Origin: Candidatus Giovannonibacteria bacterium RIFCSPHIGHO2_01_FULL_45_24
GTDB taxonomy: Bacteria > Patescibacteriota > Minisyncoccia > UBA11713 > 2-01-FULL-45-33
Length of the DNA stretch: 64,000 nt
Assembly: GCA_001778495.1 (NCBI GenBank)
Contig: MFHE01000007.1
Coordinates: 3,996 to 67,995, forward strand
Direction of reading: 5' to 3'
Each line of letters starts with the position of its first letter. Within the stretch, counting starts at the first letter, position 1. The notes beneath the pieces are model-generated. The model had not been told where the DNA came from, did not search any database, and worked only from the letters and a program-made list of their open reading frames with translations. Shown here in pieces: positions 42,715 through 51,430 of this stretch. Position numbers and translations under genes: made by a program.

Positions 42715-43764
42715 TCAAGCTTTTATTACACCGCCGCCCAAGAGTTCTTCGCCGGAATAAAAAACTGCGGATTGCCCTTGGGCGACACCGCGCTGGGGCG
42801 AGTCAAAAATAATTTTGCCGCCGGAAAACCTGGCGCCTTGCCGGGGCTGGCGGTAACGGACACGAACTTCCATTCTTTCGGGCGGGTTTCCGGAAATAAG
42901 ATTAATCTCACCAATTTTAATCTCGTTCAGATAGAGTGCCGGATTTTCTGCATCGGCGACCACAAGCGTATTCGCGTTCGCATCCCGCTCCGCCACATAG
43001 GCCGGGCGCTCAAGCCCTCCGAGCTTCAGTCCGTGCCGCTGGCCGATGGTGTAAAAGTGCGCGCCGTCGTGCTTGCCAATCTCCTCTCCTGCCGGGTTTA
43101 AAATCGCGCCTTCTTTTCGCGGAAGAATCCTGCGTAAAAATTCCTGAAAATCAACTTTGCCGACAAAGCAAAGCCCTTGCGAATCCTTTTTTGCGGCAGT
43201 CGGTAAGCCAGCTTTTCTTGCCAACTCCCTAACCTCCGACTTTAAATAATCACCTATCGGAAAAAGGCAGTGCCGGAGCTGGTTTTGAGTGAGAGCCCAG
43301 AGAAAATAGGATTGGTCTTTGCTGGGGTCTTTCGCGGCAAATAACTTGGAAGCCGAACTTCCACTTGGAAGTTCGGCTTCCAAGTGCCGGACATAGTGTC
43401 CCGTCGCAATAAAATCCGCCCCTGCTTCCAGCGCGCGTTTCAAAAAAATCCCGAACTTGATTTCCTTATTGCACATCACGTCCGGATTGGGCGTGCGGCT
43501 CTCCGCGTATCCCCGCACCATATAATCAAAAACTTCCTCGCGGTATTCTTTTTTAAAATCCCAAACCAAAAACGGAATGCCGAGCTTCGCCGCCACCCTC
43601 ATCGCATCCCGCTTGTCTTCGTTATTTTCGCAACCTTCCCAGCAGAGCATATGAACGCCAGTGACATCGTATCCTTTTTCTTTCAACAGCAAGGCAGCCA
43701 CAGAAGAATCAACTCCACCGCTCATCGCAACAAAGACTTTTTGTTTCTTATCTGTATTTGACAT
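42715..43764 (-). CDS. mnmA: tRNA 2-thiouridine(34) synthase MnmA
   Basis: 349 aa. PP-loop VFVAMSGGVDSSVAA, and DSQGLCFVG. Confidence 0.95.
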   Translation of the reverse strand: MSNTDKKQKVFVAMSGGVDSSVAALLLKEKGYDVTGVHMLCWEGCENNEDKRDAMRVAAKLGIPFLVWDFKKEYREEVFDYMVRGYAESRTPNPDVMCNKEIKFGIFLKRALEAGADFIATGHYVRHLEAELPSGSSASKLFAAKDPSKDQSYFLWALTQNQLRHCLFPIGDYLKSEVRELARKAGLPTAAKKDSQGLCFVGKVDFQEFLRRILPRKEGAILNPAGEEIGKHDGAHFYTIGQRHGLKLGGLERPAYVAERDANANTLVVADAENPALYLNEIKIGEINLISGNPPERMEVRVRYRQPRQGARFSGGKIIFDSPQRGVAQGQSAVFYSGEELLGGGVIKA

Positions 43765-43783
43765 GCGGTGACATTATAATATA

Positions 43784-44158
43784 ATGGAATTAATGAAGTC
43801 CATAGGCGCAATTTGGCTGATTTTGAGCTTTACCGCCCTCGCTACGTTCGGGTTTTTGGCGATGGATGAAAATATGGCGCACAGAATCTGTTTGGCCTCA
43901 ACTCTGGCCGGCGCATTTTGCCCAGAAAACAACGCTTTCGCGGTCGCATTTTTCCACACGACGGCTTTCAAAAGTTTTTCGCTGGCCTTAATCTTCGCGC
44001 TCCTTCTGGCGGGATATGCAATCTTTTCAATGCTCGCGCCGAAGATTTTTTCTCCCGAAACAAACCTTAGCTTTGTTTTCAATTCGACTGAAACCAAACT
44101 CTCCCCGCTCGCAAAATCCCTAAGAGAGTGGCTGGCGCTCCGCGAAAACAGCCGCTAA
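43784..44158 (+). CDS. Hypothetical small membrane protein
   Basis: 124 aa with two clear hydrophobic helices. First gene of the plus-strand block. Preferred over the antisense 107-aa ORF. Confidence 0.45.
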   Translation: MELMKSIGAIWLILSFTALATFGFLAMDENMAHRICLASTLAGAFCPENNAFAVAFFHTTAFKSFSLALIFALLLAGYAIFSMLAPKIFSPETNLSFVFNSTETKLSPLAKSLREWLALRENSR

Positions 44159-44227
44159 TTTTGCTTTTGTCTTTTCAAAACCCGTTTTGGGCGGGCGCTT
44201 TTTATTCATTTAATTTTCTCTTCTCTT

Positions 44228-44725
44228 ATGCAAAATAAAAATATTATTATGAGTGCTTTGGCCAGCGCGGTTATTCTGGGCGGGATAATTTGGCTAGGCA
44301 ATCTCTCGAAAACACAAAACGCTGGCGGCGATTACGCCGTTGCAGGGGGCAAGCTTGCGGTCGAAGAAACAAATTTTGATTTCGGCAAAATTTCAATGGC
44401 CGCCGGCAATGTCAGGCACGCGTTTAAAATTAAAAACGCCGGCGCGGTGCCGGTAACAGTCAACAAAATATACACTTCCTGCATGTGCACCGCCGCTTCG
44501 CTAAAAACCGCAGCCGGAGAGTGGGGGCCTTTCGGGATGCCCGGGCACGGCCTCACTCCGAAACTGAATATTAAGCTCGCGCCCGGCGCGGAAACAGAAC
44601 TGGAAGCCATCTTTGACCCGGCGGCGCACGGGCCCGCCGGGGTCGGCCAAATTGAACGCGTGATTTATTTAGACACCAGTCACGGCGTGACGGAATTAAA
44701 AATTAAAGCGCTGGTGACGCCCTAA
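44228..44725 (+). CDS. DUF1573-like secreted/anchored protein
   Basis: 165 aa. N-terminal anchor, then FDFGKISMAAGNVRHAFKIKNAGAVPVTVNKIYTSCMCT (the DUF1573 pattern, from memory). Confidence 0.7.
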   Translation: MQNKNIIMSALASAVILGGIIWLGNLSKTQNAGGDYAVAGGKLAVEETNFDFGKISMAAGNVRHAFKIKNAGAVPVTVNKIYTSCMCTAASLKTAAGEWGPFGMPGHGLTPKLNIKLAPGAETELEAIFDPAAHGPAGVGQIERVIYLDTSHGVTELKIKALVTP

Positions 44726-44729
44726 ACTT

Positions 44730-45431
44730 ATGACCGAAATCATCTGGAATTTATCAAACGGCGGGGAGCGGCTTTTCCCTCTCATAGCCGCCTCCGCTAT
44801 TATTGACAGCGTCAATCCCTGCGCTTTTTCCATTTTGCTCCTTACCATCGCGTTTCTTTTTTCCGCAGGGCATCTCCGTTCCAAAATCCTCACTGTCGGA
44901 GGTTTCTACATCGCGGGGATTTTCCTTGTGTATCTCGCGATCGGCCTGGGGCTGCTGCAAGTCCTGCATCTATTCAACACCCCGCATTTTATGGCGAAAA
45001 TCGGCGCCGCCTTTCTAATTATCCTTGGCGTAATCAATATTATAAATTGGTTCTTCCCGAAATTTCCGATTAAATTTAAAATCCCAAACGCTGCTCATCA
45101 TAAAATGTCGGCGCTCATTGAAAAAAGCTCCTTGCCGGCGGCGTTTCTTTTGGGCGCGCTTGTCGGGCTCTGCGAATTTCCATGCACCGGCGGACCTTAC
45201 CTCGCGGCCGTGGGGCTTCTAAACGACAAAGCCACGTATCTTGCCGGAGTCGGCTACTTATTGGCATACAACATTATCTTTATTCTGCCCTTGGCAGCCG
45301 CCTTGCTTCTTGCAAGCAACAAAAATCTCCTGGAGCGCGTACGCACTTGGCAGGAAAGAGAAAAATCCGCCGAAAAAGTGTGGGCGGGGCTGGCGATGGT
45401 GATTCTAGGAATTATTATTTATCTCCTATAA
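44730..45431 (+). CDS. CcdA/DsbD-family transmembrane thiol:disulfide electron transporter
   Basis: 233 aa polytopic membrane protein. Contains DSVNPCAFSILL and CEFPCTGGPYL cysteine motifs. Confidence 0.8.
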   Translation: MTEIIWNLSNGGERLFPLIAASAIIDSVNPCAFSILLLTIAFLFSAGHLRSKILTVGGFYIAGIFLVYLAIGLGLLQVLHLFNTPHFMAKIGAAFLIILGVINIINWFFPKFPIKFKIPNAAHHKMSALIEKSSLPAAFLLGALVGLCEFPCTGGPYLAAVGLLNDKATYLAGVGYLLAYNIIFILPLAAALLLASNKNLLERVRTWQEREKSAEKVWAGLAMVILGIIIYLL

Positions 45432-45439
45432 TTTAAAAT

Positions 45440-45802
45440 ATGCATCTACGAATTTGCCCAATTTGCTCCGCTGTCTCTGGAACATGGCTAATCCTTACGG
45501 CGCTGGTTCTAGCCGGATATCTGCCGTCCGAAACTTTTCTGCCGCTCATCGCGCTTCTTATGGGTGGAACGGTCGTGGGCATTGCTTACCGGTTTGAAAA
45601 ACAAAGGCCGCTCATAATCGGCGCGGGCATGCTGCTTGCTTTTTTGGCGGTGCGCAACATGACTTTTCCCGTGTTTTTGTTGGAACTCGTTGTTGTCGCC
45701 GGGCTTGCGTATTTCCTATTTTTCAGAAAAATTGAAACTGCCGAGCCACAAAACAAAAAGGCGCGTGAATCATTGGAAGAAAAAATGAAACGATGCTGCT
45801 GA
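45440..45802 (+). CDS. Hypothetical membrane protein with N-terminal CPxC and C-terminal CC
   Basis: 120 aa. MHLRICPICSAV..., 3-4 TM helices, and ends in KRCC. Confidence 0.5.
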   Translation: MHLRICPICSAVSGTWLILTALVLAGYLPSETFLPLIALLMGGTVVGIAYRFEKQRPLIIGAGMLLAFLAVRNMTFPVFLLELVVVAGLAYFLFFRKIETAEPQNKKARESLEEKMKRCC

Positions 45803-46218
45803 TATTTTTACTCATTAGTTTCGTGGGGTTCGCCGACGCGGTCTATCTTACGGCCACGCACTACACCGGCGCCAATGTTGCCTGCGGAGTGCTTGAGGGC
45901 TGCGACAAGGTTTTGGCTAGCGCCTATTCAGTATTCGCCGGGCTACCCGTGGCACTTTTGGGCGTGATTTACTACTTGCTGCTCATTACTCTTCTTTTGT
46001 GCTACTTTGCGACAAAGCAAAAAGGGTTCCTATGGGCCGCCGCCGCGTTTACGCCCGTCGGCTTTCTGGCATCAGCATGGTTTTTGTATCTCCAGATATT
46101 CGTCATAAAAACGCTTTGCTTTTATTGCCTGATTTCGGCTATCAGCTCAACCCTGCTCCTTATTATCAGCTTATACATTTTATGGAAACAAAAAACGAAA
46201 ACGACTTTGTTGGCATAG
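45793..46218 (+). CDS. Vitamin K epoxide reductase (VKOR) family protein
   Basis: 141 aa with 4 TM helices. Loop cysteines ACGVLEGC and the active-site CFYC in the last helix. Confidence 0.8.
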   Translation: MLLIFLLISFVGFADAVYLTATHYTGANVACGVLEGCDKVLASAYSVFAGLPVALLGVIYYLLLITLLLCYFATKQKGFLWAAAAFTPVGFLASAWFLYLQIFVIKTLCFYCLISAISSTLLLIISLYILWKQKTKTTLLA

Positions 46219-46841
46219 GGCTTATTATTGCGTTTGTTCTGCTCGCTGCCATCTCGCTGATCGGCGTGAAAAAAACTGATGTGGTAAGCGCCGAATTGAA
46301 CGGCTTAAAAACAAAATTGGTCGCCGCGGGCGTGATTGACAAAAAAAGATCGGAAAACCGCTTAAATCTTCTCTGGGCTTTTGGGCTCGCCAATAAAAAC
46401 GAAATTCTTGAAAAAGGGCCTATGGCAAACCTGCGATACGACACAGGCCGCTTCGCTTCCACCGGCGGCTGGATTCCAGCACAAGGCGGCGCAATGGACC
46501 ACTACTCGCGTTATGAATTCATCAAGCTCACCGATACCCAGCAAAAACTTGTTGAAAAATTAGCCAAAAATATCTACCGGCCCTGTTGCGACAATCCGGC
46601 TTATTTTCCGGACTGCAACCACGGCATGGCCATGCTGGGGCTTTTGGAGCTTATGGCCTCCGAGGGCGCGAGCGAGAAAGAAATGTATCTCGCGGCGCTC
46701 AAAGCAAACGCCGAATGGTTTCCGGACGCTTATCACAATATCGCGAAATACTTAGCGGCAAAGGGTTTAACCCCGGACCAAGCCGGCCCGAAAGAAATTT
46801 TAAGCGCGAAATACTCCAGCGGGAACGGCGGGGCTTGCTAA
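46182..46841 (+). CDS. Hypothetical anchored protein with PCC / DCNHG cysteine motifs
   Basis: 219 aa from the internal ATG (METKNEN + TM helix). IYRPCCDNPAYFPDCNHGMAMLG. Overlaps the VKOR 3' end by 37 nt. Confidence 0.55.
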   Translation: METKNENDFVGIGLIIAFVLLAAISLIGVKKTDVVSAELNGLKTKLVAAGVIDKKRSENRLNLLWAFGLANKNEILEKGPMANLRYDTGRFASTGGWIPAQGGAMDHYSRYEFIKLTDTQQKLVEKLAKNIYRPCCDNPAYFPDCNHGMAMLGLLELMASEGASEKEMYLAALKANAEWFPDAYHNIAKYLAAKGLTPDQAGPKEILSAKYSSGNGGAC

Positions 46842-46897
46842 GAAGAGTATAATTAAATTAAAGGCCGATATTATCAGCAAATATATAAATAACAAAT

Positions 46898-47158
46898 ATG
46901 CAATTAAATAAACAAAAATTTGCTTTAGCCGCAGCCGCTGTAATGAGCGGCTGGTCAGTGATTTGCGCAGTCTTAGTCGCAATAGCGCCAAATTTGGCGC
47001 TCACCCTGTTCAGCTGGATGGTTCATCTGGTCAATCTTAAGGCGGGCGTGAGCTTCCCGGGAGCAATTTATGGGATTATTGAAGTTTTCATCCTGACCTA
47101 CATAACCGCCTACGCTTTTGCGTTGCTGCACAATAAATTTATCCAGCCCAAGACCTAG
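46898..47158 (+). CDS. Small two-helix membrane protein (DUF5676-like by eye)
   Basis: 86 aa, immediately upstream of the P-type ATPase. Confidence 0.5.
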   Translation: MQLNKQKFALAAAAVMSGWSVICAVLVAIAPNLALTLFSWMVHLVNLKAGVSFPGAIYGIIEVFILTYITAYAFALLHNKFIQPKT

Positions 47159-47160
47159 CG

Positions 47161-49293
47161 ATGAAAAAAACGATTTATACTTGCCCGATGCATCCGGAGG
47201 TGATTAGAAACGAGCCCGGGAATTGTCCGGGCTGCGGCATGGATCTTATTCTTAAAAAAGCGGTGATATCTGCTCCGTATCAACATGAAATACCCGGCGC
47301 GAAGACCGGCCCGCAGATGGCTAAAAAAATGGAGCAAGATATGCGGCGCCGCTTTTGGATTTCTTTTATTCTCTCTATTCCGATTGTTTTATATTCTCCT
47401 TTGGGGCTCAACTACTTTAAGCTTAATCTTCCGACACCGATTCCGACGAACTGGTTGCTTCTTATCCTTACAACGCCCATAGTTTTTTGGACCGGCTCAA
47501 TTTTTATCACCGGCACTTATTACTCGCTCAAGGCCAAAAAATTAAATATGTCCGTTCTAATCGCGACCGGCGTTCTGGCGGCGTATCTTTTCAGCGTTCT
47601 CTTAACCATAATCGGCGGGGATGAAACTTTTTACGAAGCGGCGGCGCTTTTGGTGACATTTGTTTTATTCGGCCATTGGATGGAGATGAAATCGCGGCGT
47701 GGCACTTCCGACGCGCTTCGCGCGCTTTTTGATCTTGTGCCGCCTCGGGCGAACGTGATTCATAATGGTAAAGAAATCACAATACCAAGCGCTGAAATTG
47801 TTCATAATGATATCGTCATATTGCGGCCCGGAGATAAAGTGCCGGTTGACGGAGTTATTGCCGAGGGCGAATCGTCAATTGACGAATCGCTGGTCACCGG
47901 CGAGTCCATTCCGGTTTTAAAAAAAATCGGCGATAAAGTCATCGGCGGCTCGGTCAACCAAACCGGCACCGTAAAATTCAAGGCGACCGGGGTCGGCTCG
48001 GAAACGGTTCTCGCGCAAATCATCAAACTCGTTGAATCCGCCCAAAATTCCAAAGCGCCCGGACAGCGGATTGCCGACAAAGCCGCCGGCTGGCTTGTGC
48101 TGGTTGCAATCGGCTCCGGAATCGCGGCGTTTCTGGGCTGGTATTTTATCGCCGGCGCGGCGCTTTTGACGGCCCTGACTTTCGCGATATCCGCTGTAGT
48201 TATCGCCTGCCCTGACGCCTTGGGGCTCGCGACTCCGACCGCTGTCGCGGTAGGCACCGGCATCGGCGCCAAACACAATATTTTAATCAAAGACGCTTCA
48301 ACCCTGGAGAATACTTCAAGAATCAATGCCATTATTCTTGACAAAACGGGAACATTAACCCTCGGGAGGCCGAAGGTCACCGATGTTATTGCTTTTAATA
48401 ACTTTAGCGAACGCGACATTTTGCGCTACGAGGCCAGCATTGAGGCCGGGTCAAATCATCCGCTTGCGAAAGCCATCTTGGAAGAAGCCGAGGGGCGCGG
48501 CGCTTTGCCGCTCAATGCGATGGAAAATTTTGAGTCGCTTGCCGGCCACGGACTCAAAGCCCGGATTGGCAATAAAATAATTTTAGCCGGAACGGAAAAA
48601 CTGCTTAAAGATAACGGAGTCTCAACCGGCGCCTGGCGCGGAGCTCTTGACCGGCTTGCCGGAGAAGGAAAAACATTAAGCTTGCTGGCTGTTGACGGAG
48701 TTTTTGCGGGCGTTGTCGCCGCCGCGGACCCTCCCAGAGCAAATTCCAAAAAGACCATCGCGGCGCTGAAAAATCTGGGGTTGGAAGTTGTGATGATTAC
48801 CGGAGACCACGCGAAAGTAGCTGAGGGTATTGGGAAAGAATTGGGCATTGACAGGGTATTCGGCGAAGTGCTTCCCGGAGACAAAGCGAGGTACGTTAAA
48901 AAATTGCGGGACGAGGGGAAATTCGTCGCGATGGTCGGAGACGGCATTAACGACGCGCCGGCGCTCGCGGAGTCCGACATAGGCATCGCCATCGGCGCCG
49001 GAACGGACGTGGCGATTGAAACCGGAAACATCGTCCTTATGAAATCAGACCCCTACGATATCGTGGCGGCGCTCCGCTTAAGCAAGGCAACCGTAATCAA
49101 AATGAAACAAAATCTTTTCTGGGCGGCAATTTACAATGTGCTTGCGATACCGATTGCGGCCGGCGTTTTTTATAATTCGCTCGGCTGGTCACTCCGCCCC
49201 GAGATTTCAGCACTCCTTATGTCCGCTTCCTCAATTATCGTGGCTACTAACGCGGTGTTATTGAAAAGAGTTGAGCCCAGCCTGCGTCAATAA
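47161..49293 (+). CDS. Heavy-metal (copper-type) P1B-ATPase with CPD transmembrane motif
   Basis: 710 aa. N-terminal YTCPMHPEVIRNEPGNCPGCGMDL metal-binding module, plus TGES, ACPDALGLATP, DKTGTLT, GDGINDAPAL, the YN (AAIYNVLAIP) and the MSASS motifs. Confidence 0.95.
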   Translation: MKKTIYTCPMHPEVIRNEPGNCPGCGMDLILKKAVISAPYQHEIPGAKTGPQMAKKMEQDMRRRFWISFILSIPIVLYSPLGLNYFKLNLPTPIPTNWLLLILTTPIVFWTGSIFITGTYYSLKAKKLNMSVLIATGVLAAYLFSVLLTIIGGDETFYEAAALLVTFVLFGHWMEMKSRRGTSDALRALFDLVPPRANVIHNGKEITIPSAEIVHNDIVILRPGDKVPVDGVIAEGESSIDESLVTGESIPVLKKIGDKVIGGSVNQTGTVKFKATGVGSETVLAQIIKLVESAQNSKAPGQRIADKAAGWLVLVAIGSGIAAFLGWYFIAGAALLTALTFAISAVVIACPDALGLATPTAVAVGTGIGAKHNILIKDASTLENTSRINAIILDKTGTLTLGRPKVTDVIAFNNFSERDILRYEASIEAGSNHPLAKAILEEAEGRGALPLNAMENFESLAGHGLKARIGNKIILAGTEKLLKDNGVSTGAWRGALDRLAGEGKTLSLLAVDGVFAGVVAAADPPRANSKKTIAALKNLGLEVVMITGDHAKVAEGIGKELGIDRVFGEVLPGDKARYVKKLRDEGKFVAMVGDGINDAPALAESDIGIAIGAGTDVAIETGNIVLMKSDPYDIVAALRLSKATVIKMKQNLFWAAIYNVLAIPIAAGVFYNSLGWSLRPEISALLMSASSIIVATNAVLLKRVEPSLRQ

Positions 49294-49337
49294 GCTTCGG
49301 CGGGCAGGCAAAATTAAAAAAATGATAAAATAAACTT

Positions 49338-49718
49338 ATGAATACTAAACTCATTACTTGGGTTTTGCGCATCGCTGTTGCCGGTGAATTTCTCGGCCAT
49401 GGCGTTTTCGCGCTTCAGGGAAAAGCGCAATGGGTCGGCTGGTTTGCTAATTTCGGCGTATCCGATGTCAGCACTGCAGCCACTCTTTTATTTTTAGTCG
49501 GGCTGATAGATATTGCCCTGGCGCTTTTAATTTTAATAAAGCCGGTTCGGATTGCGCTTTTGTGGATGGCGCTTTGGGGATTTTGGACCGCTCTTCTGCG
49601 TCCCCTCGTCGGAGAACCGATCTGGGACTTTGTTGAACGTTGGGCTAATTGGGGAGCTCCGCTCACACTTCTCCTTATGGCTGGTTGGCCTAAGTCGCTT
49701 AAAGAGTGGTTTAAATAA
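49338..49718 (+). CDS. Hypothetical 4-TM membrane protein
   Basis: 126 aa and hydrophobic. Last gene of the plus-strand block. Confidence 0.55.
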   Translation: MNTKLITWVLRIAVAGEFLGHGVFALQGKAQWVGWFANFGVSDVSTAATLLFLVGLIDIALALLILIKPVRIALLWMALWGFWTALLRPLVGEPIWDFVERWANWGAPLTLLLMAGWPKSLKEWFK

Positions 49719-49725
49719 TTTATTA

Positions 49726-49756
49726 AATAAAAAGGGGCAGCGACGAATCGCGCCCC
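49726..49756 (-). terminator. Intrinsic terminator of the Cys/His-rich orphan
   Basis: GGGGCaGCGA-cgaa-TCGCGCCCC hairpin, followed on the minus strand by tttttatt. It begins 6 nt after the stop. Confidence 0.7.
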
Positions 49757-49761
49757 GCTCG

Positions 49762-50391
49762 CTAATCTGCCACTCTTGCGTTTTTTTTGAACCACATTAG
49801 CGCGGATGCAAACTCCAGATTGCCGCTATGCTGGCGGCATTCCACCTGAAGGATAACCGCGCCGTTTATCGCTTGCGGTTCAGCAAGCGTGATTTTCAAC
49901 TTCTCGACCAATTCCGAGATTTCCGCCGCTGTCCAGGTTTTTTTCTCACGGTTACGGTTAGCGTGCAAGTGTTCGCAGCACCAAAGCGAACACTCATGGT
50001 CAAGGTGATCATACATCACATCCGAATCCAGGTGATGCTGACACCAGTTAAGCTTCCCGCAGGCGCATTTTTTGAAAAAAACCGGCGGCAATCCGCACCG
50101 GCAACGTAAGAAAAACGGCGCGGCGGCATCTTTTTGGGGCAATGCCAAGGCAATCCATTCAAAAAGCCACTGGCCATTATTCGGCCAAGGAGTCGTATGG
50201 TCATTGCCATTTTGGGTGTGAACATATCTAAGCCATGCCCTGAAATGCTCCTCCGAAAGCTCTATCTTAAAACTGGCGTTCCTCCGCCACTCTTTCAGAA
50301 TGGCAAGATTGACTGCCAGCTCCTCCGGTTTTTGAACCACGTCTTTGAAATCAAGAAGCCAAAGCTGTGAGCCCTTCCTGGATGTCACCAT
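49762..50391 (-). CDS. Cys/His-rich hypothetical protein (SD-bearing orphan)
   Basis: 209 aa from the ATG, preceded by GGAAGGAGGT at 7 nt. Dense metal-ligand block: CRCGLPPVFFKKCACGKLNWCQHHLDSDVMYDHLDHECSLWCCEHLH. Confidence 0.6.
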   Translation of the reverse strand: MVTSRKGSQLWLLDFKDVVQKPEELAVNLAILKEWRRNASFKIELSEEHFRAWLRYVHTQNGNDHTTPWPNNGQWLFEWIALALPQKDAAAPFFLRCRCGLPPVFFKKCACGKLNWCQHHLDSDVMYDHLDHECSLWCCEHLHANRNREKKTWTAAEISELVEKLKITLAEPQAINGAVILQVECRQHSGNLEFASALMWFKKNARVAD

Positions 50392-50494
50392 TTGCAATAC
50401 CTCCTTCCTGCTTTTTTATAGCAAGAACATCCGGTTCATTGCAACGCGCAAGCTGTGGATTGTGGGCCGCGGTGAAAAATGTTATATTTTGCTT

Positions 50495-51430
50495 ATGAAT
50501 GAAAAAGCTGGCCCTAAAGACGTGTTTCTTCAGCTTTTAAATATTATCGCGCTTTACGTGAGCGCGGGGATGTTTATAAATCTGATTTTCAGCTACATCA
50601 ACATCTGGCTGCCGGACGCGCTTTCGGAAAATTATTACACGCTCCTTGCCGCGCGCTCGTCCGTCCGCTTGGCGATAGCGAGCTTGATTGTGGTCTTCCC
50701 GGTTTACATCTGGGCGACATGGTTTTTAAATAAAGGATATGCCGCAATACCGGCGAAGCGCGAGATGAAAATAAGAAAATGGCTGCTTTATTTCACGCTT
50801 TTTCTGGCAGGGATAATAATCATCGGCGATTTAGTGACATTGATTTACAACCTTTTGCAAGGCGAGCTGACGGCGAGATTTTTGCTTAAAATTTTGGCGG
50901 TACTTATAGTCGCTAGCGCCGTTTTCGGATATTATATTTTAGACATTAAAAACAAGGCGCCGCACAAAGTTTTTTGCTACGGCGCGTCTTTGATAATCCT
51001 TGCGGCGATTGCCGCCGGTTTTTTCCTTGTGGGCTCGCCGAAAGAAGAGCGCGCCAGAAAATTTGACGACCAAAGAGTCCAGCATCTTCAGCTTATCCAA
51101 TCTGAAATAATAAATTATTGGATTAAAAAAGCCGCGCTACCGAAAACCTTGGGCGAACTAGATGACCCTATCAGAGGCGTCGTCATCTCCAAAGACCCCG
51201 AATCCGGCGCGGAGTATGTTTATGAAGTTGTTGATAAAGAAAACTTCAAACTCTGCGCGACATTTAATCTGCCGAGCTTAGGCCAAGTATTATTAAAAAC
51301 AATGCGGGAACCGGCCGCTCCTCCATCGCTAGCATATTACAACGAACAAAACTGGGCGCACGGCCAAGACCAAACCTGCTTTGACCGGAAAATAGACAAG
51401 GACCTTTACAAACCGGAGAAGGTGAGGTAG
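50495..51430 (+). CDS. Polytopic membrane protein with C-terminal extracytoplasmic domain (DUF5671-like by eye)
   Basis: 311 aa from the internal ATG (MNEKAGPKDVF). About 5 TM helices, followed by a soluble domain. Confidence 0.6.
   Translation: MNEKAGPKDVFLQLLNIIALYVSAGMFINLIFSYINIWLPDALSENYYTLLAARSSVRLAIASLIVVFPVYIWATWFLNKGYAAIPAKREMKIRKWLLYFTLFLAGIIIIGDLVTLIYNLLQGELTARFLLKILAVLIVASAVFGYYILDIKNKAPHKVFCYGASLIILAAIAAGFFLVGSPKEERARKFDDQRVQHLQLIQSEIINYWIKKAALPKTLGELDDPIRGVVISKDPESGAEYVYEVVDKENFKLCATFNLPSLGQVLLKTMREPAAPPSLAYYNEQNWAHGQDQTCFDRKIDKDLYKPEKVR

Follow-up and report, generated by a model that had tools for sequence, protein, structure and literature searches.

A conserved copper-linked cysteine gene cluster of Patescibacteria that probably serves copper defence

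Introduction

In Bradyrhizobium and Bacillus, CcdA and TlpA keep the copper chaperone Sco reduced. Gram-positive bacteria possess CsoR-regulated copZ-copA and CopB (P1B-3) operons, and VKOR proteins such as those of Synechococcus (PDB 4nv2/3kp9) and of the MdbA-VKOR pair of Actinomyces oris have four catalytic cysteines and a serine. The Scs system (ScsABCD) of Salmonella, Proteus and Caulobacter links copper tolerance to the reduction of envelope thiols by means of a DsbD-type protein and outer partners with cysteine motifs (outlined in PMC3322552). Here we analyse a block of nine genes, O1 to O9, at positions 43784-49718 of a 64,000-nucleotide stretch of DNA from Candidatus Giovannonibacteria bacterium RIFCSPHIGHO2_01_FULL_45_24 (contig MFHE01000007.1; the whole stretch is termed the window). 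The genes code for a small membrane protein (O1), a DUF1573 protein (O2), a CcdA-like protein (O3), a cysteine-rich membrane protein (O4), a VKOR (O5), an anchored helical protein (O6), a DUF5676 protein (O7), a copper P1B-type ATPase (O8) and a DoxX-like protein (O9). What the block encodes is a genuine, conserved system of envelope cysteine proteins linked to copper. With a probability of roughly 0.7, the nine genes form one operon that is transcribed from a perfect sigma-70 promoter and constitute a copy of a copper-defence module conserved in Patescibacteria, which works by the mechanism proposed below.

Compared to Scs, none of the nine proteins is a thioredoxin-fold homologue of ScsC or ScsD, and O3 is minimal and has no extra domains. 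The partners O1, DUF1573, O4 and O6 belong to other, uncharacterised families, and the operon is shared with a copper pump. The resemblance to Scs is therefore one in the way of working and not in membership. Furthermore, this group of organisms is described as having no outer membrane (Meheust et al. 2019, PMC6744442). The locus resembles CcdA/TlpA-Sco in that a conduit and an outer reductase would keep the cysteines of a tethered copper binder reduced, and related loci contain CcdA and an AhpC/Redoxin protein beside O6. It differs in having no Sco or PCuAC homologue, and O6 is all-helical and not thioredoxin-like; we know of no cytochrome oxidase in this bacterial group. Judged by these comparisons, the system appears to work like Scs or CcdA/TlpA-Sco but is built of other, unnamed families.

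Patescibacteria account for much of bacterial diversity, and for most of their envelope proteins no function is known. The operon places O1, O4, O6, DUF5676 and the CxC form of DUF1573 in a testable context of copper export and surface cysteine chemistry. A published description of the cluster, of DUF5676 or of an acceptor for VKOR in the candidate phyla radiation (CPR) was not found in the literature outside supplements; the family tables of Meheust et al. 2019 might list the families.

Conservation of the cluster

An alignment of 22 O6 sequences was scanned against a species-level genome collection, which yielded at least 573 relatives. The best 80 loci were retained, and the partners were counted by comparing the proteins of the window with all open reading frames (ORFs) of these loci by means of phmmer. 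O6 had a match in all 80 loci, the ATPase in 65, DUF1573 in 58, O3 in 49 and O1 in 42. DUF5676 was matched in 28 loci, O4 in 25, the DoxX-like protein in 13 and VKOR in 6. For the genes flanking the block in the window, the corresponding numbers were 7 for MnmA and 1 for each of three others. The cluster genes recur on one strand in the order 1-2-3-(4)-6-(7)-8-(9), across records of many candidate phyla. Because they recur in order and the flanks rarely do so, the nine-gene block is more than a chance arrangement. Its closest relatives are Candidatus Giovannonibacteria loci (L059, L086 and L096), and invariant Cys and/or His residues are present in every cluster member.

A first-pass annotation, which was deduced from the sequence alone, had interpreted the block as an extracytoplasmic cysteine/copper system with several uncharacterised members, and had named beforehand, as what would refute it, a gene order conserved nowhere else together with unknown members that occur apart from the redox or copper genes. 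The order is kept across the 80 loci, and the unnamed members travel with the redox and copper genes; this interpretation thus stands.

The copper link is strengthened by the genes that join the cluster in related loci, among them a CsoR-type repressor and YHS and HMA copper domains. In order to describe these accessory genes, the unassigned ORFs on the cluster strand were grouped and then named with Pfam. Named families were the CsoR-family repressor (12 of 80 loci), DUF302 (9), a YHS-domain protein (5) and an anchored protein of the AhpC/Redoxin fold (9), which is the partner of a canonical CcdA. The latter, a CC-type CcdA that scores 35.6 bits with DsbD_TM and hence lies above the cut-off, is found in 17 loci. 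O3, in its 49 loci, and canonical CcdA occur together only once, and 65 of the 80 loci contain one or the other. Families without a Pfam name were a stand-alone thioredoxin with a WCPHC motif (19 loci), a soluble helical protein ending in CC (17 loci), and a membrane SCCTH protein plus an anchored GGHH protein, which are always paired (18 loci). The WCPHC thioredoxin is similar to the thioredoxin domain of Synechococcus VKOR (4nv2; 1.7e-18). O4 and the soluble CC-tailed protein each follow O3 and co-occur in none of the 80 loci.

Layout and promoter of the block

The nine plus-strand ORFs are tightly packed, with spacers of -37 to +69 nucleotides (nt), as is typical of an operon. They stand in a region in which the large ORFs of 6849-43764 are nearly all on the minus strand. 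The extent and co-directionality given in the first-pass annotation were exact, and the motifs quoted there (SCMCT, CPIC...CC, CFYC and PCC...DCNHG) are all present. Its family assignments held for DUF1573, VKOR and the P1B ATPase, which score above their cut-offs; CcdA does not reach that of Pfam (25.9 versus 27.1 bits). The host genome (531 kb, 14 contigs, 89.8% complete) was screened by targeted family searches.

A sigma-70-type promoter TTGACA-16-TATAAT, which matches the consensus in 12 of 12 positions, lies on the plus strand at 43758-43785 and is the only perfect site of this type in 43300-50500. The -10 box extends into the first ATG of O1, and the -35 box overlaps the start codon of a divergent MnmA-like gene. 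The second ATG of O1 (43793) is separated from the -10 box by about 7 nt and corresponds to a Met that is kept in at least 80% of the homologues. Since this ATG is so close to the -10 box, the O1 transcript is likely to be leaderless from 43793, as judged from the sequence.

The segment 43758-43802 contains two promoter-like sites back to back, the plus-strand site and TGGACT-18-TATAAT on the minus strand, and both -10 boxes stand a few bases before a start (O1, 43793; MnmA-like gene, 43764). This arrangement suggests that both genes may be leaderless. A terminator-like hairpin with a T run is located at 44181-44195, inside the 69-nt spacer between O1 and O2; terminator-like sites are about 2 standard deviations more frequent than in shuffled sequences.

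The order O3-O4-VKOR-O6 is bridged with 0 differences by contigs of three other public runs from three studies (X2 record 2, covering 44965-46630; X3 record 11; X6 record 28). The position of VKOR is therefore not an artefact of the assembly. What is new in the window is a VKOR in the place of a thioredoxin, a CPD variant of the pump, and a promoter that suggests a leaderless transcript.

The hub protein O6

O6 (46182-46841, plus strand) consists of an anchor helix at the N-terminus and an extracytoplasmic domain that is entirely helical. Its ORF opens with a GTG at 45999. The start was taken as 46182, for which the product is present letter for letter in the Atlas and agrees with the homologue P0002 (73% identical). 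At least 6995 homologues exist, none of which has a Pfam domain or an informative name, and a 50%-identity library contains 683 representatives. O1, O4 and O6 matched no Pfam or NCBIfam family. The family runs to thousands of proteins; there is no Pfam entry, solved structure or clear fold match for O6. In the 22-sequence alignment the residues C135, C136, C145, H147 and C219 are invariant, which corresponds to a CC...C-x-H site plus a cysteine in the C-terminal tail. In the window the motif reads PCC...DCNHG, with Met neighbours in CNHGMAM.

The O6 of the window and P0002 are a short form and do not contain a stretch of about 60-90 residues (LPVxWGDLG...NGxxxIT) between anchor and core that is present, fully or partly, in the other aligned homologues. 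In contigs from four metagenome runs the depth rises from about 20 to 150-600 over 46556-46759, the motif region of O6, and over 49004-49207, which codes for ATPase motifs. These jumps are likely due to contigs of other organisms that match at 95% identity or more, so that both stretches are probably conserved even at the level of DNA.

For a survey of fusion proteins, the 120 O6 homologues of more than 384 residues among the matches listed were searched for partners with phmmer. The O6 domain is C-terminal in all of them. Fusion partners were the SCCTH protein (7 cases), the ATPase (5), O4 (2) and the VKOR-type thioredoxin (2), as well as VKOR, DUF1573 (P0128) and the GGHH protein in one case each. 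By precomputed Pfam assignments, rhodanese-O6 lipoproteins are the commonest fusion (57 of 120, counted by hand), and one HMA-O6 fusion exists. The five ATPase-O6 fusions are independent and comprise two ATPase subtypes; in each, O6 is joined to the C-terminus of the ATPase. O6 is consequently the obvious first target for biochemistry, because it is fused to the pump.

The fusions also allow for a deduction of topology. In twelve of them, hydropathy indicated one helix before O6 if the partner ends in the cytoplasm (ATPase, VKOR, O4, HMA) and no helix if the partner is secreted (thioredoxin, GGHH protein, DUF1573). In P0123 and P0127, the two fusions of O4 and O6, the CC tail precedes a single helix. 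It follows that the O6 domain is extracytoplasmic and the CC tail of O4 cytoplasmic. Note that fusions without O6's own anchor cannot be a simple read-through of adjacent genes. Topology was taken from the fusions because the positive-inside count for 115 O6 anchors, in which the N-terminal amine was disregarded, was ambiguous (49 versus 28, with 38 ties).

An AlphaFold2 (AF2) model of O6 is all-helical, with a predicted local distance difference test (pLDDT) score of 79. Foldseek gave no match of this model to the PDB at E <= 0.001, and the O6 profile found nothing among PDB sequences. The best fold match (VIA), a weak one that serves as a lead only, is the periplasmic domain of CcmH (2hl7), which superimposes with a root-mean-square deviation of 3.2 over 77 of 82 residues and is also present in the Atlas structure list. 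CcmH/NrfF is a small helical thiol-redox domain at the outer face of the membrane. In contrast to CcmH (PF03918), with which there is no sequence match in Pfam or the PDB, O6 has CC...C-x-H and a tail cysteine instead of one CxxC, and no cytochrome c maturation genes are found near O6.

This fold match bears on the alternative that the cluster is a general envelope thiol-disulfide system with no direct role for metal. O6 would then be a CcmH-like helical oxidoreductase that is oxidised by VKOR or a thioredoxin and reduced by CcdA, and the pump would merely be co-regulated because copper damages thiols. The similarity to a thiol reductase, the fusions of O6 to VKOR, VKOR-type thioredoxin and rhodanese, and the selenocysteine forms of DUF1573, which carry UGC according to a table in PMC9312934, are in line with this explanation. 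We nevertheless regard it as unlikely, since the five independent ATPase-O6 fusions of two subtypes and the HMA-O6 fusion tie O6 to copper binders. Moreover, an invariant site with a His and a nearby Met (CNHGMAM) would suit Cu(I) on chemical grounds.

The abundance of rhodanese-O6 proteins raises a further alternative, namely that the system deals with sulfane sulfur or persulfide on the cell surface. O6 and its rhodanese forms would move persulfide, and the CsoR-like regulators would be CstR-like sensors. The CRSGxxS loop of the rhodanese-O6 protein P0139 is intact. However, rhodanese is absent from the window and from most of the 80 loci, and copper ATPases, HMA, HMBD and YHS dominate the neighbourhood; this explanation is thus extremely improbable.

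The O1-O4 module

O1 (43784-44158, plus strand, start probably 43793) is a small membrane protein with two helices and no family. It is always upstream of DUF1573 in its 42 loci, and C36, C46 and H58 are invariant in 37 of 37 sequences. O2 (44228-44725, plus strand) is a signal-anchored DUF1573 protein (PF07610; 51.5 bits, cut-off 26.1, 1e-13) with the CxC motif SCMCT; C85, C87 and H134 are invariant in 60 of 60 sequences. Searches of the PDB with the O2 sequence and the O3 profile gave nothing useful.

O3 (44730-45431, plus strand) is a polytopic membrane protein of the DsbD_TM/SfLAP kind with borderline profile scores: 35.1 bits for SfLAP (cut-off 35) and 25.9 bits for DsbD_TM (PF02683; cut-off 27.1). 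Within the O3 family (n=24), SfLAP matched 21 and DsbD_TM 14 members at E <= 0.001. Characteristic of CcdA are two membrane helices with a conserved cysteine each; O3 has such helices, with NPC in an early and CEFPC in a later one. C31 (NPC) and C152 (FPC) are invariant, C148 is present in 46 of 48 sequences, and H80, H86 and H123 are conserved. Due to its DsbD_TM score below the cut-off, O3 is termed CcdA-like only, and the CcdA assignment of the first-pass annotation is not supported in the form in which it was given. O3 is the only DsbD_TM-like gene of the host genome.

O4 (45440-45802, plus strand) is a membrane protein with CPxC at the start of a helix (CPIC...CC in the window) and a C-terminal KxCC tail. 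It has no family, and an Atlas search with O4 returned unnamed clusters only. O4 is always between O3 and O6 in its 25 loci, and C6, C9, C119 and C120 are invariant in 25 of 25 sequences. Its CC tail is a candidate electron donor to O3. The main reason for reading O1-O4 as a reducing relay is that CcdA plus a TlpA-like protein replace the module in other genomes.

The cysteine pairs of O4 also allow for the alternative of a Mer-like relay for Hg, Ag or Cu, in which DUF1573 would capture the metal outside, O4 would carry it inward, and the ATPase or cytoplasmic thiols would handle it. The layout of these pairs parallels that of MerT, MerC and MerF, and the CC tail is cytoplasmic according to the topology of the fusions. 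An NCBIfam MerT model gave a weak match to O4 (E 0.094; 12.8 bits), far from its cut-off of 150, and there is no significant homology to any Mer protein. A MerA-like reductase was not seen in the cluster in the 80 loci, and an import of metal only for its re-export would have no evident benefit. A relay of this kind is therefore very unlikely.

The pump and its small membrane partners

O8 (47161-49293, plus strand) is a copper P1B-type ATPase according to TIGR01511 (567.8 bits, cut-off 397, 2.8e-170) and TIGR01525 (584.8 bits, cut-off 346.25, 2.1e-175). It has an N-terminal HMBD (PF19335; 6.9e-12; CPMHPE...CPGCG) and the motifs DKTGT, YN and MSASS, and its fourth transmembrane helix (TM4) contains CPD. 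A single PF00122 match identifies it as the sole P-type ATPase of the host genome. In order to classify O8, the motifs of 58 cluster ATPases with more than 550 residues were compared. CPH and MSxST were found in 31 of them, mostly with HMBD, and CPC, MxxSS and HMA in 16. Ten had CPD and MSxSS, nine of these with HMBD, and one was unreadable. O8 has neither the classical CPC (P1B-1) nor the CPH (P1B-3) signature and is nearest to the CPH/HMBD set. The CPD ATPases may represent an undescribed P1B subgroup; no literature search was made on this motif.

With the CsoR-regulated copZ-copA and CopB operons the locus shares a P1B ATPase with YN and MxxSS-type helices and, in 12 of the 80 related loci, a CsoR-family repressor. 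It differs from them in that the window has no CopZ and the genome no CsoR, and in its seven extra conserved genes. The N-terminus of O8 is an HMBD and not HMA or His-rich, and CPD replaces CPC or CPH.

O7 (46898-47158, plus strand) is a two-helix membrane protein of the DUF5676 family (PF18926; 50.1 bits, cut-off 27.6, 5.5e-13) directly upstream of the ATPase. DUF5676 is mostly adjacent to the ATPase in its 28 loci, and C23 and H43 are invariant in 27 of 27 sequences. The last gene, O9 (49338-49718, plus strand), codes for a membrane protein with four helices that follows the ATPase in 11 of 13 loci; H21 is invariant. It is called DoxX-like only, because its score with DoxX (PF07681) is 22.8 bits and thus below the cut-off of 23.6. 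DoxX was matched at E <= 0.01 by 9 of 14 members of the O9 family.

Some P1B ATPases serve the assembly of cuproproteins. An alternative to copper defence is therefore copper acquisition, in which O6, DUF1573 and O1 would be outer chaperones kept in the reduced state and the ATPase would supply metal to a copper enzyme. The architecture follows the CcdA/TlpA-to-Sco logic, and O6 is located at the exit of the pump in the fusions. On the other hand, the CsoR-type repressor of the 12 related loci is characteristic of regulons for efflux, and no second P-type ATPase was found in the genome. No multicopper oxidase domain was found in the host genome, which is weak evidence, as this was the one cuproenzyme family screened. 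Taken together, copper acquisition seems quite unlikely.

VKOR and its electron acceptor

O5 (45793-46218, plus strand) is a VKOR (PF07884; 87.1 bits, cut-off 27.5, 1.5e-24; profile positions 2-133 of 134) that consists of a 141-residue core of four helices without a fused thioredoxin domain. Its gene, the only VKOR gene of the host genome, shares 10 nt with O4 and 37 nt with O6. The loop cysteines C31 and C37, S43, and C109 and C112 of the CxxC motif, which reads CFYC in the window, are invariant in 18 sequences. The likeness to the VKOR systems of Synechococcus and Actinomyces oris extends to the domain and the four catalytic cysteines plus serine; a DsbA-like protein encoded in the genome is a candidate partner. 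In contrast to them, O5 is apart from the DsbA-like gene and wedged between O4 and O6 in a copper operon, it has no fused thioredoxin, and a quinone pathway was found neither in the host genome nor in 151 sampled genomes.

The first-pass annotation had regarded VKOR as a standing oxidising arm of the system. This view is not borne out by the relatives: VKOR is present in 6 of the 80 O6 loci. In a sample of 151 genomes drawn evenly from the phylum, 9 of the 15 other genomes with O6 contain a VKOR, and in none of these nine is it part of the cluster or located within 20 kb of O6 on one contig. In L059, L086 and L096, O4 abuts O6 with no VKOR between them. The O4-O6 gap is occupied by a VKOR-type thioredoxin in five loci and by VKOR in the window, L147 and L154. 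The neighbourhood of VKOR was analysed in 22 metagenome loci with the nearest relatives, which have at most 56% identity and include the near-duplicates L141/L145, L142/L143 and L152/L153. VKOR is next to cluster genes in L147 (1-2-3-4-VKOR-O6), L154 (3-4-VKOR-O6), L146, L149, L152 and L153; it overlaps O6 by 8 nt in L147 and by 13 nt in L154. As it occurs in few O6 loci and away from O6 in the sampled genomes, VKOR is a recurrent but rare recruit and no core member, that is, a lineage-specific addition to the cluster as read from these sequences. In a tree of 18 VKOR sequences, 2 of 15 inner branches were supported, so that one entry into the cluster and several entries are not separable. A complex prediction for VKOR and O6 scored 0.00 in a run without controls and is evidence neither way. 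In three metagenome loci (L160, L161 and L162) VKOR is the C-terminal part of a 355-residue membrane protein.

The assumption that the organism cannot make quinones is in agreement with the screen of the 89.8%-complete host genome, in which no genes of a menaquinone or other quinone pathway were found. MqnA and the chorismate-binding family each had 0 matches, and the UbiE-type matches are weak generic methyltransferases (best score 44.8 bits). The sole UbiA-family gene codes for a decaprenyl-phosphate phosphoribosyltransferase (DPPR synthase; NF008977, 243 bits versus 234). The latter gene (G000:C10:76944-77810, corresponding to L001:1405-2271, minus strand) stands beside asparagine-synthase-like and HAD-like genes, a neighbourhood that hints at a pathway for an arabinan-like cell-envelope precursor in a CPR genome.

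The question of the electron acceptor, which had been raised for the block, is a real one, but it is phylum-wide and not specific to this island. Among the 151 genomes, 47 have a VKOR, and none has MenA (TIGR00751) or MqnA; control genomes behaved as expected. Thus, about a third of the sampled genomes possess VKOR and none MenA or MqnA, which leaves either quinones scavenged from a host or another acceptor for VKOR. The location of VKOR beside MdbA-like genes in CPR is reported by Meheust et al. 2019, whose text in PMC6744442 does not contain the word "quinone". In an Actinomyces oris ubiE mutant, the MdbA/VKOR pathway is rescued by added menaquinone-4 (MK-4), as stated in PMC5478893. By analogy, this rescue may serve as a precedent for a VKOR that operates on a scavenged quinone.

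A search for DsbA- or thioredoxin-like partners had been proposed for VKOR. One anchored DsbA-like protein (CPFC; Thioredoxin_4, 4.5e-39) is encoded on contig 2 and is neither fused nor adjacent to O5; thioredoxins of the PF00085 family had no match. The DsbA-like gene is followed by DUF3105 and a TrxB/AhpF-like flavoprotein (G000:C2:71261-73410, corresponding to L003:1333-3482).

Proposed mechanism

For the copper-defence module favoured here, the following mechanism is plausible; apart from co-occurrence, fusions, topology and invariant residues, all of it is deduced. The ATPase would expel Cu(I). O6, tethered at the outer face by the pump, would take up the Cu(I) on its CC/C-x-H thiolate site, presumably assisted by its flexible C-terminal cysteine tail. 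The upstream module, which comprises O1, the CxC motif of DUF1573 outside, the CcdA-like O3 in the membrane, and O4 with its cytoplasmic CC tail, would keep the outer cysteines of O6 and perhaps of other envelope proteins reduced, or would repair disulfides made by copper. DUF5676 and the DoxX-like protein may be small membrane partners of the pump. VKOR would most likely oxidise an outer cysteine protein, either O6 or DUF1573 locally or a DsbA-like protein encoded elsewhere, and could pass the electrons to a quinone taken from the surroundings or from a host. Quinone uptake is proposed because the cell has no quinone pathway.

Several observations weigh against copper defence by this mechanism. 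O6 was found in just 16 of the 151 evenly drawn genomes, and the cluster is thus patchy across the phylum. Moreover, the 80 loci are the best query matches and not a random sample, and several of them are cut by contig ends. A DsbA-like gene is directly upstream of VKOR in 10 of the 22 VKOR loci, and VKOR is beside cluster genes in 6 of the 22. PF00085 thioredoxin, which would feed a CcdA-type conduit, had 0 matches in the 89.8%-complete genome. As judged from its profile scores, O3 is slightly better described as SfLAP, a lipid-export family, and with its conserved loop histidines it could move metal and not electrons. The Z score of 5.2 for O6 and 2hl7 is in the chance range for helical proteins. 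Some fusions, above all VKOR-O6, which is represented by one protein on a 1.7-kb contig, may be a read-through of overlapping genes. Finally, CsoR was not found in the host genome, so that regulation by copper is putative here.

A more elaborate version of the mechanism is unlikely. O6 would be a redox-gated copper acceptor in a thiol-disulfide ratchet that operates on quinone of the host membrane: an oxidant would close the site, and the CcdA-like relay would reopen it. The pump would hand over Cu(I) to the thiolate site of O6, and VKOR, or a VKOR-type thioredoxin in other loci, would make a disulfide and thereby force the copper out. The relay O4 -> O3 -> DUF1573 would then reopen the site, which would result in a one-way expulsion of copper in a cell that has no outer membrane. 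If true, a ratchet run on host quinone would link copper defence with life as an episymbiont.

A neighbouring gene

Downstream of the block, an ORF of 211 residues on the minus strand (49762-50397) converges on the end of the operon. Its product matches no family, is rich in Cys and His (CxC, CC and HxxH runs), and has a homologue in the corresponding position of L096. The protein could serve for storage or act as a metal-binding regulator.

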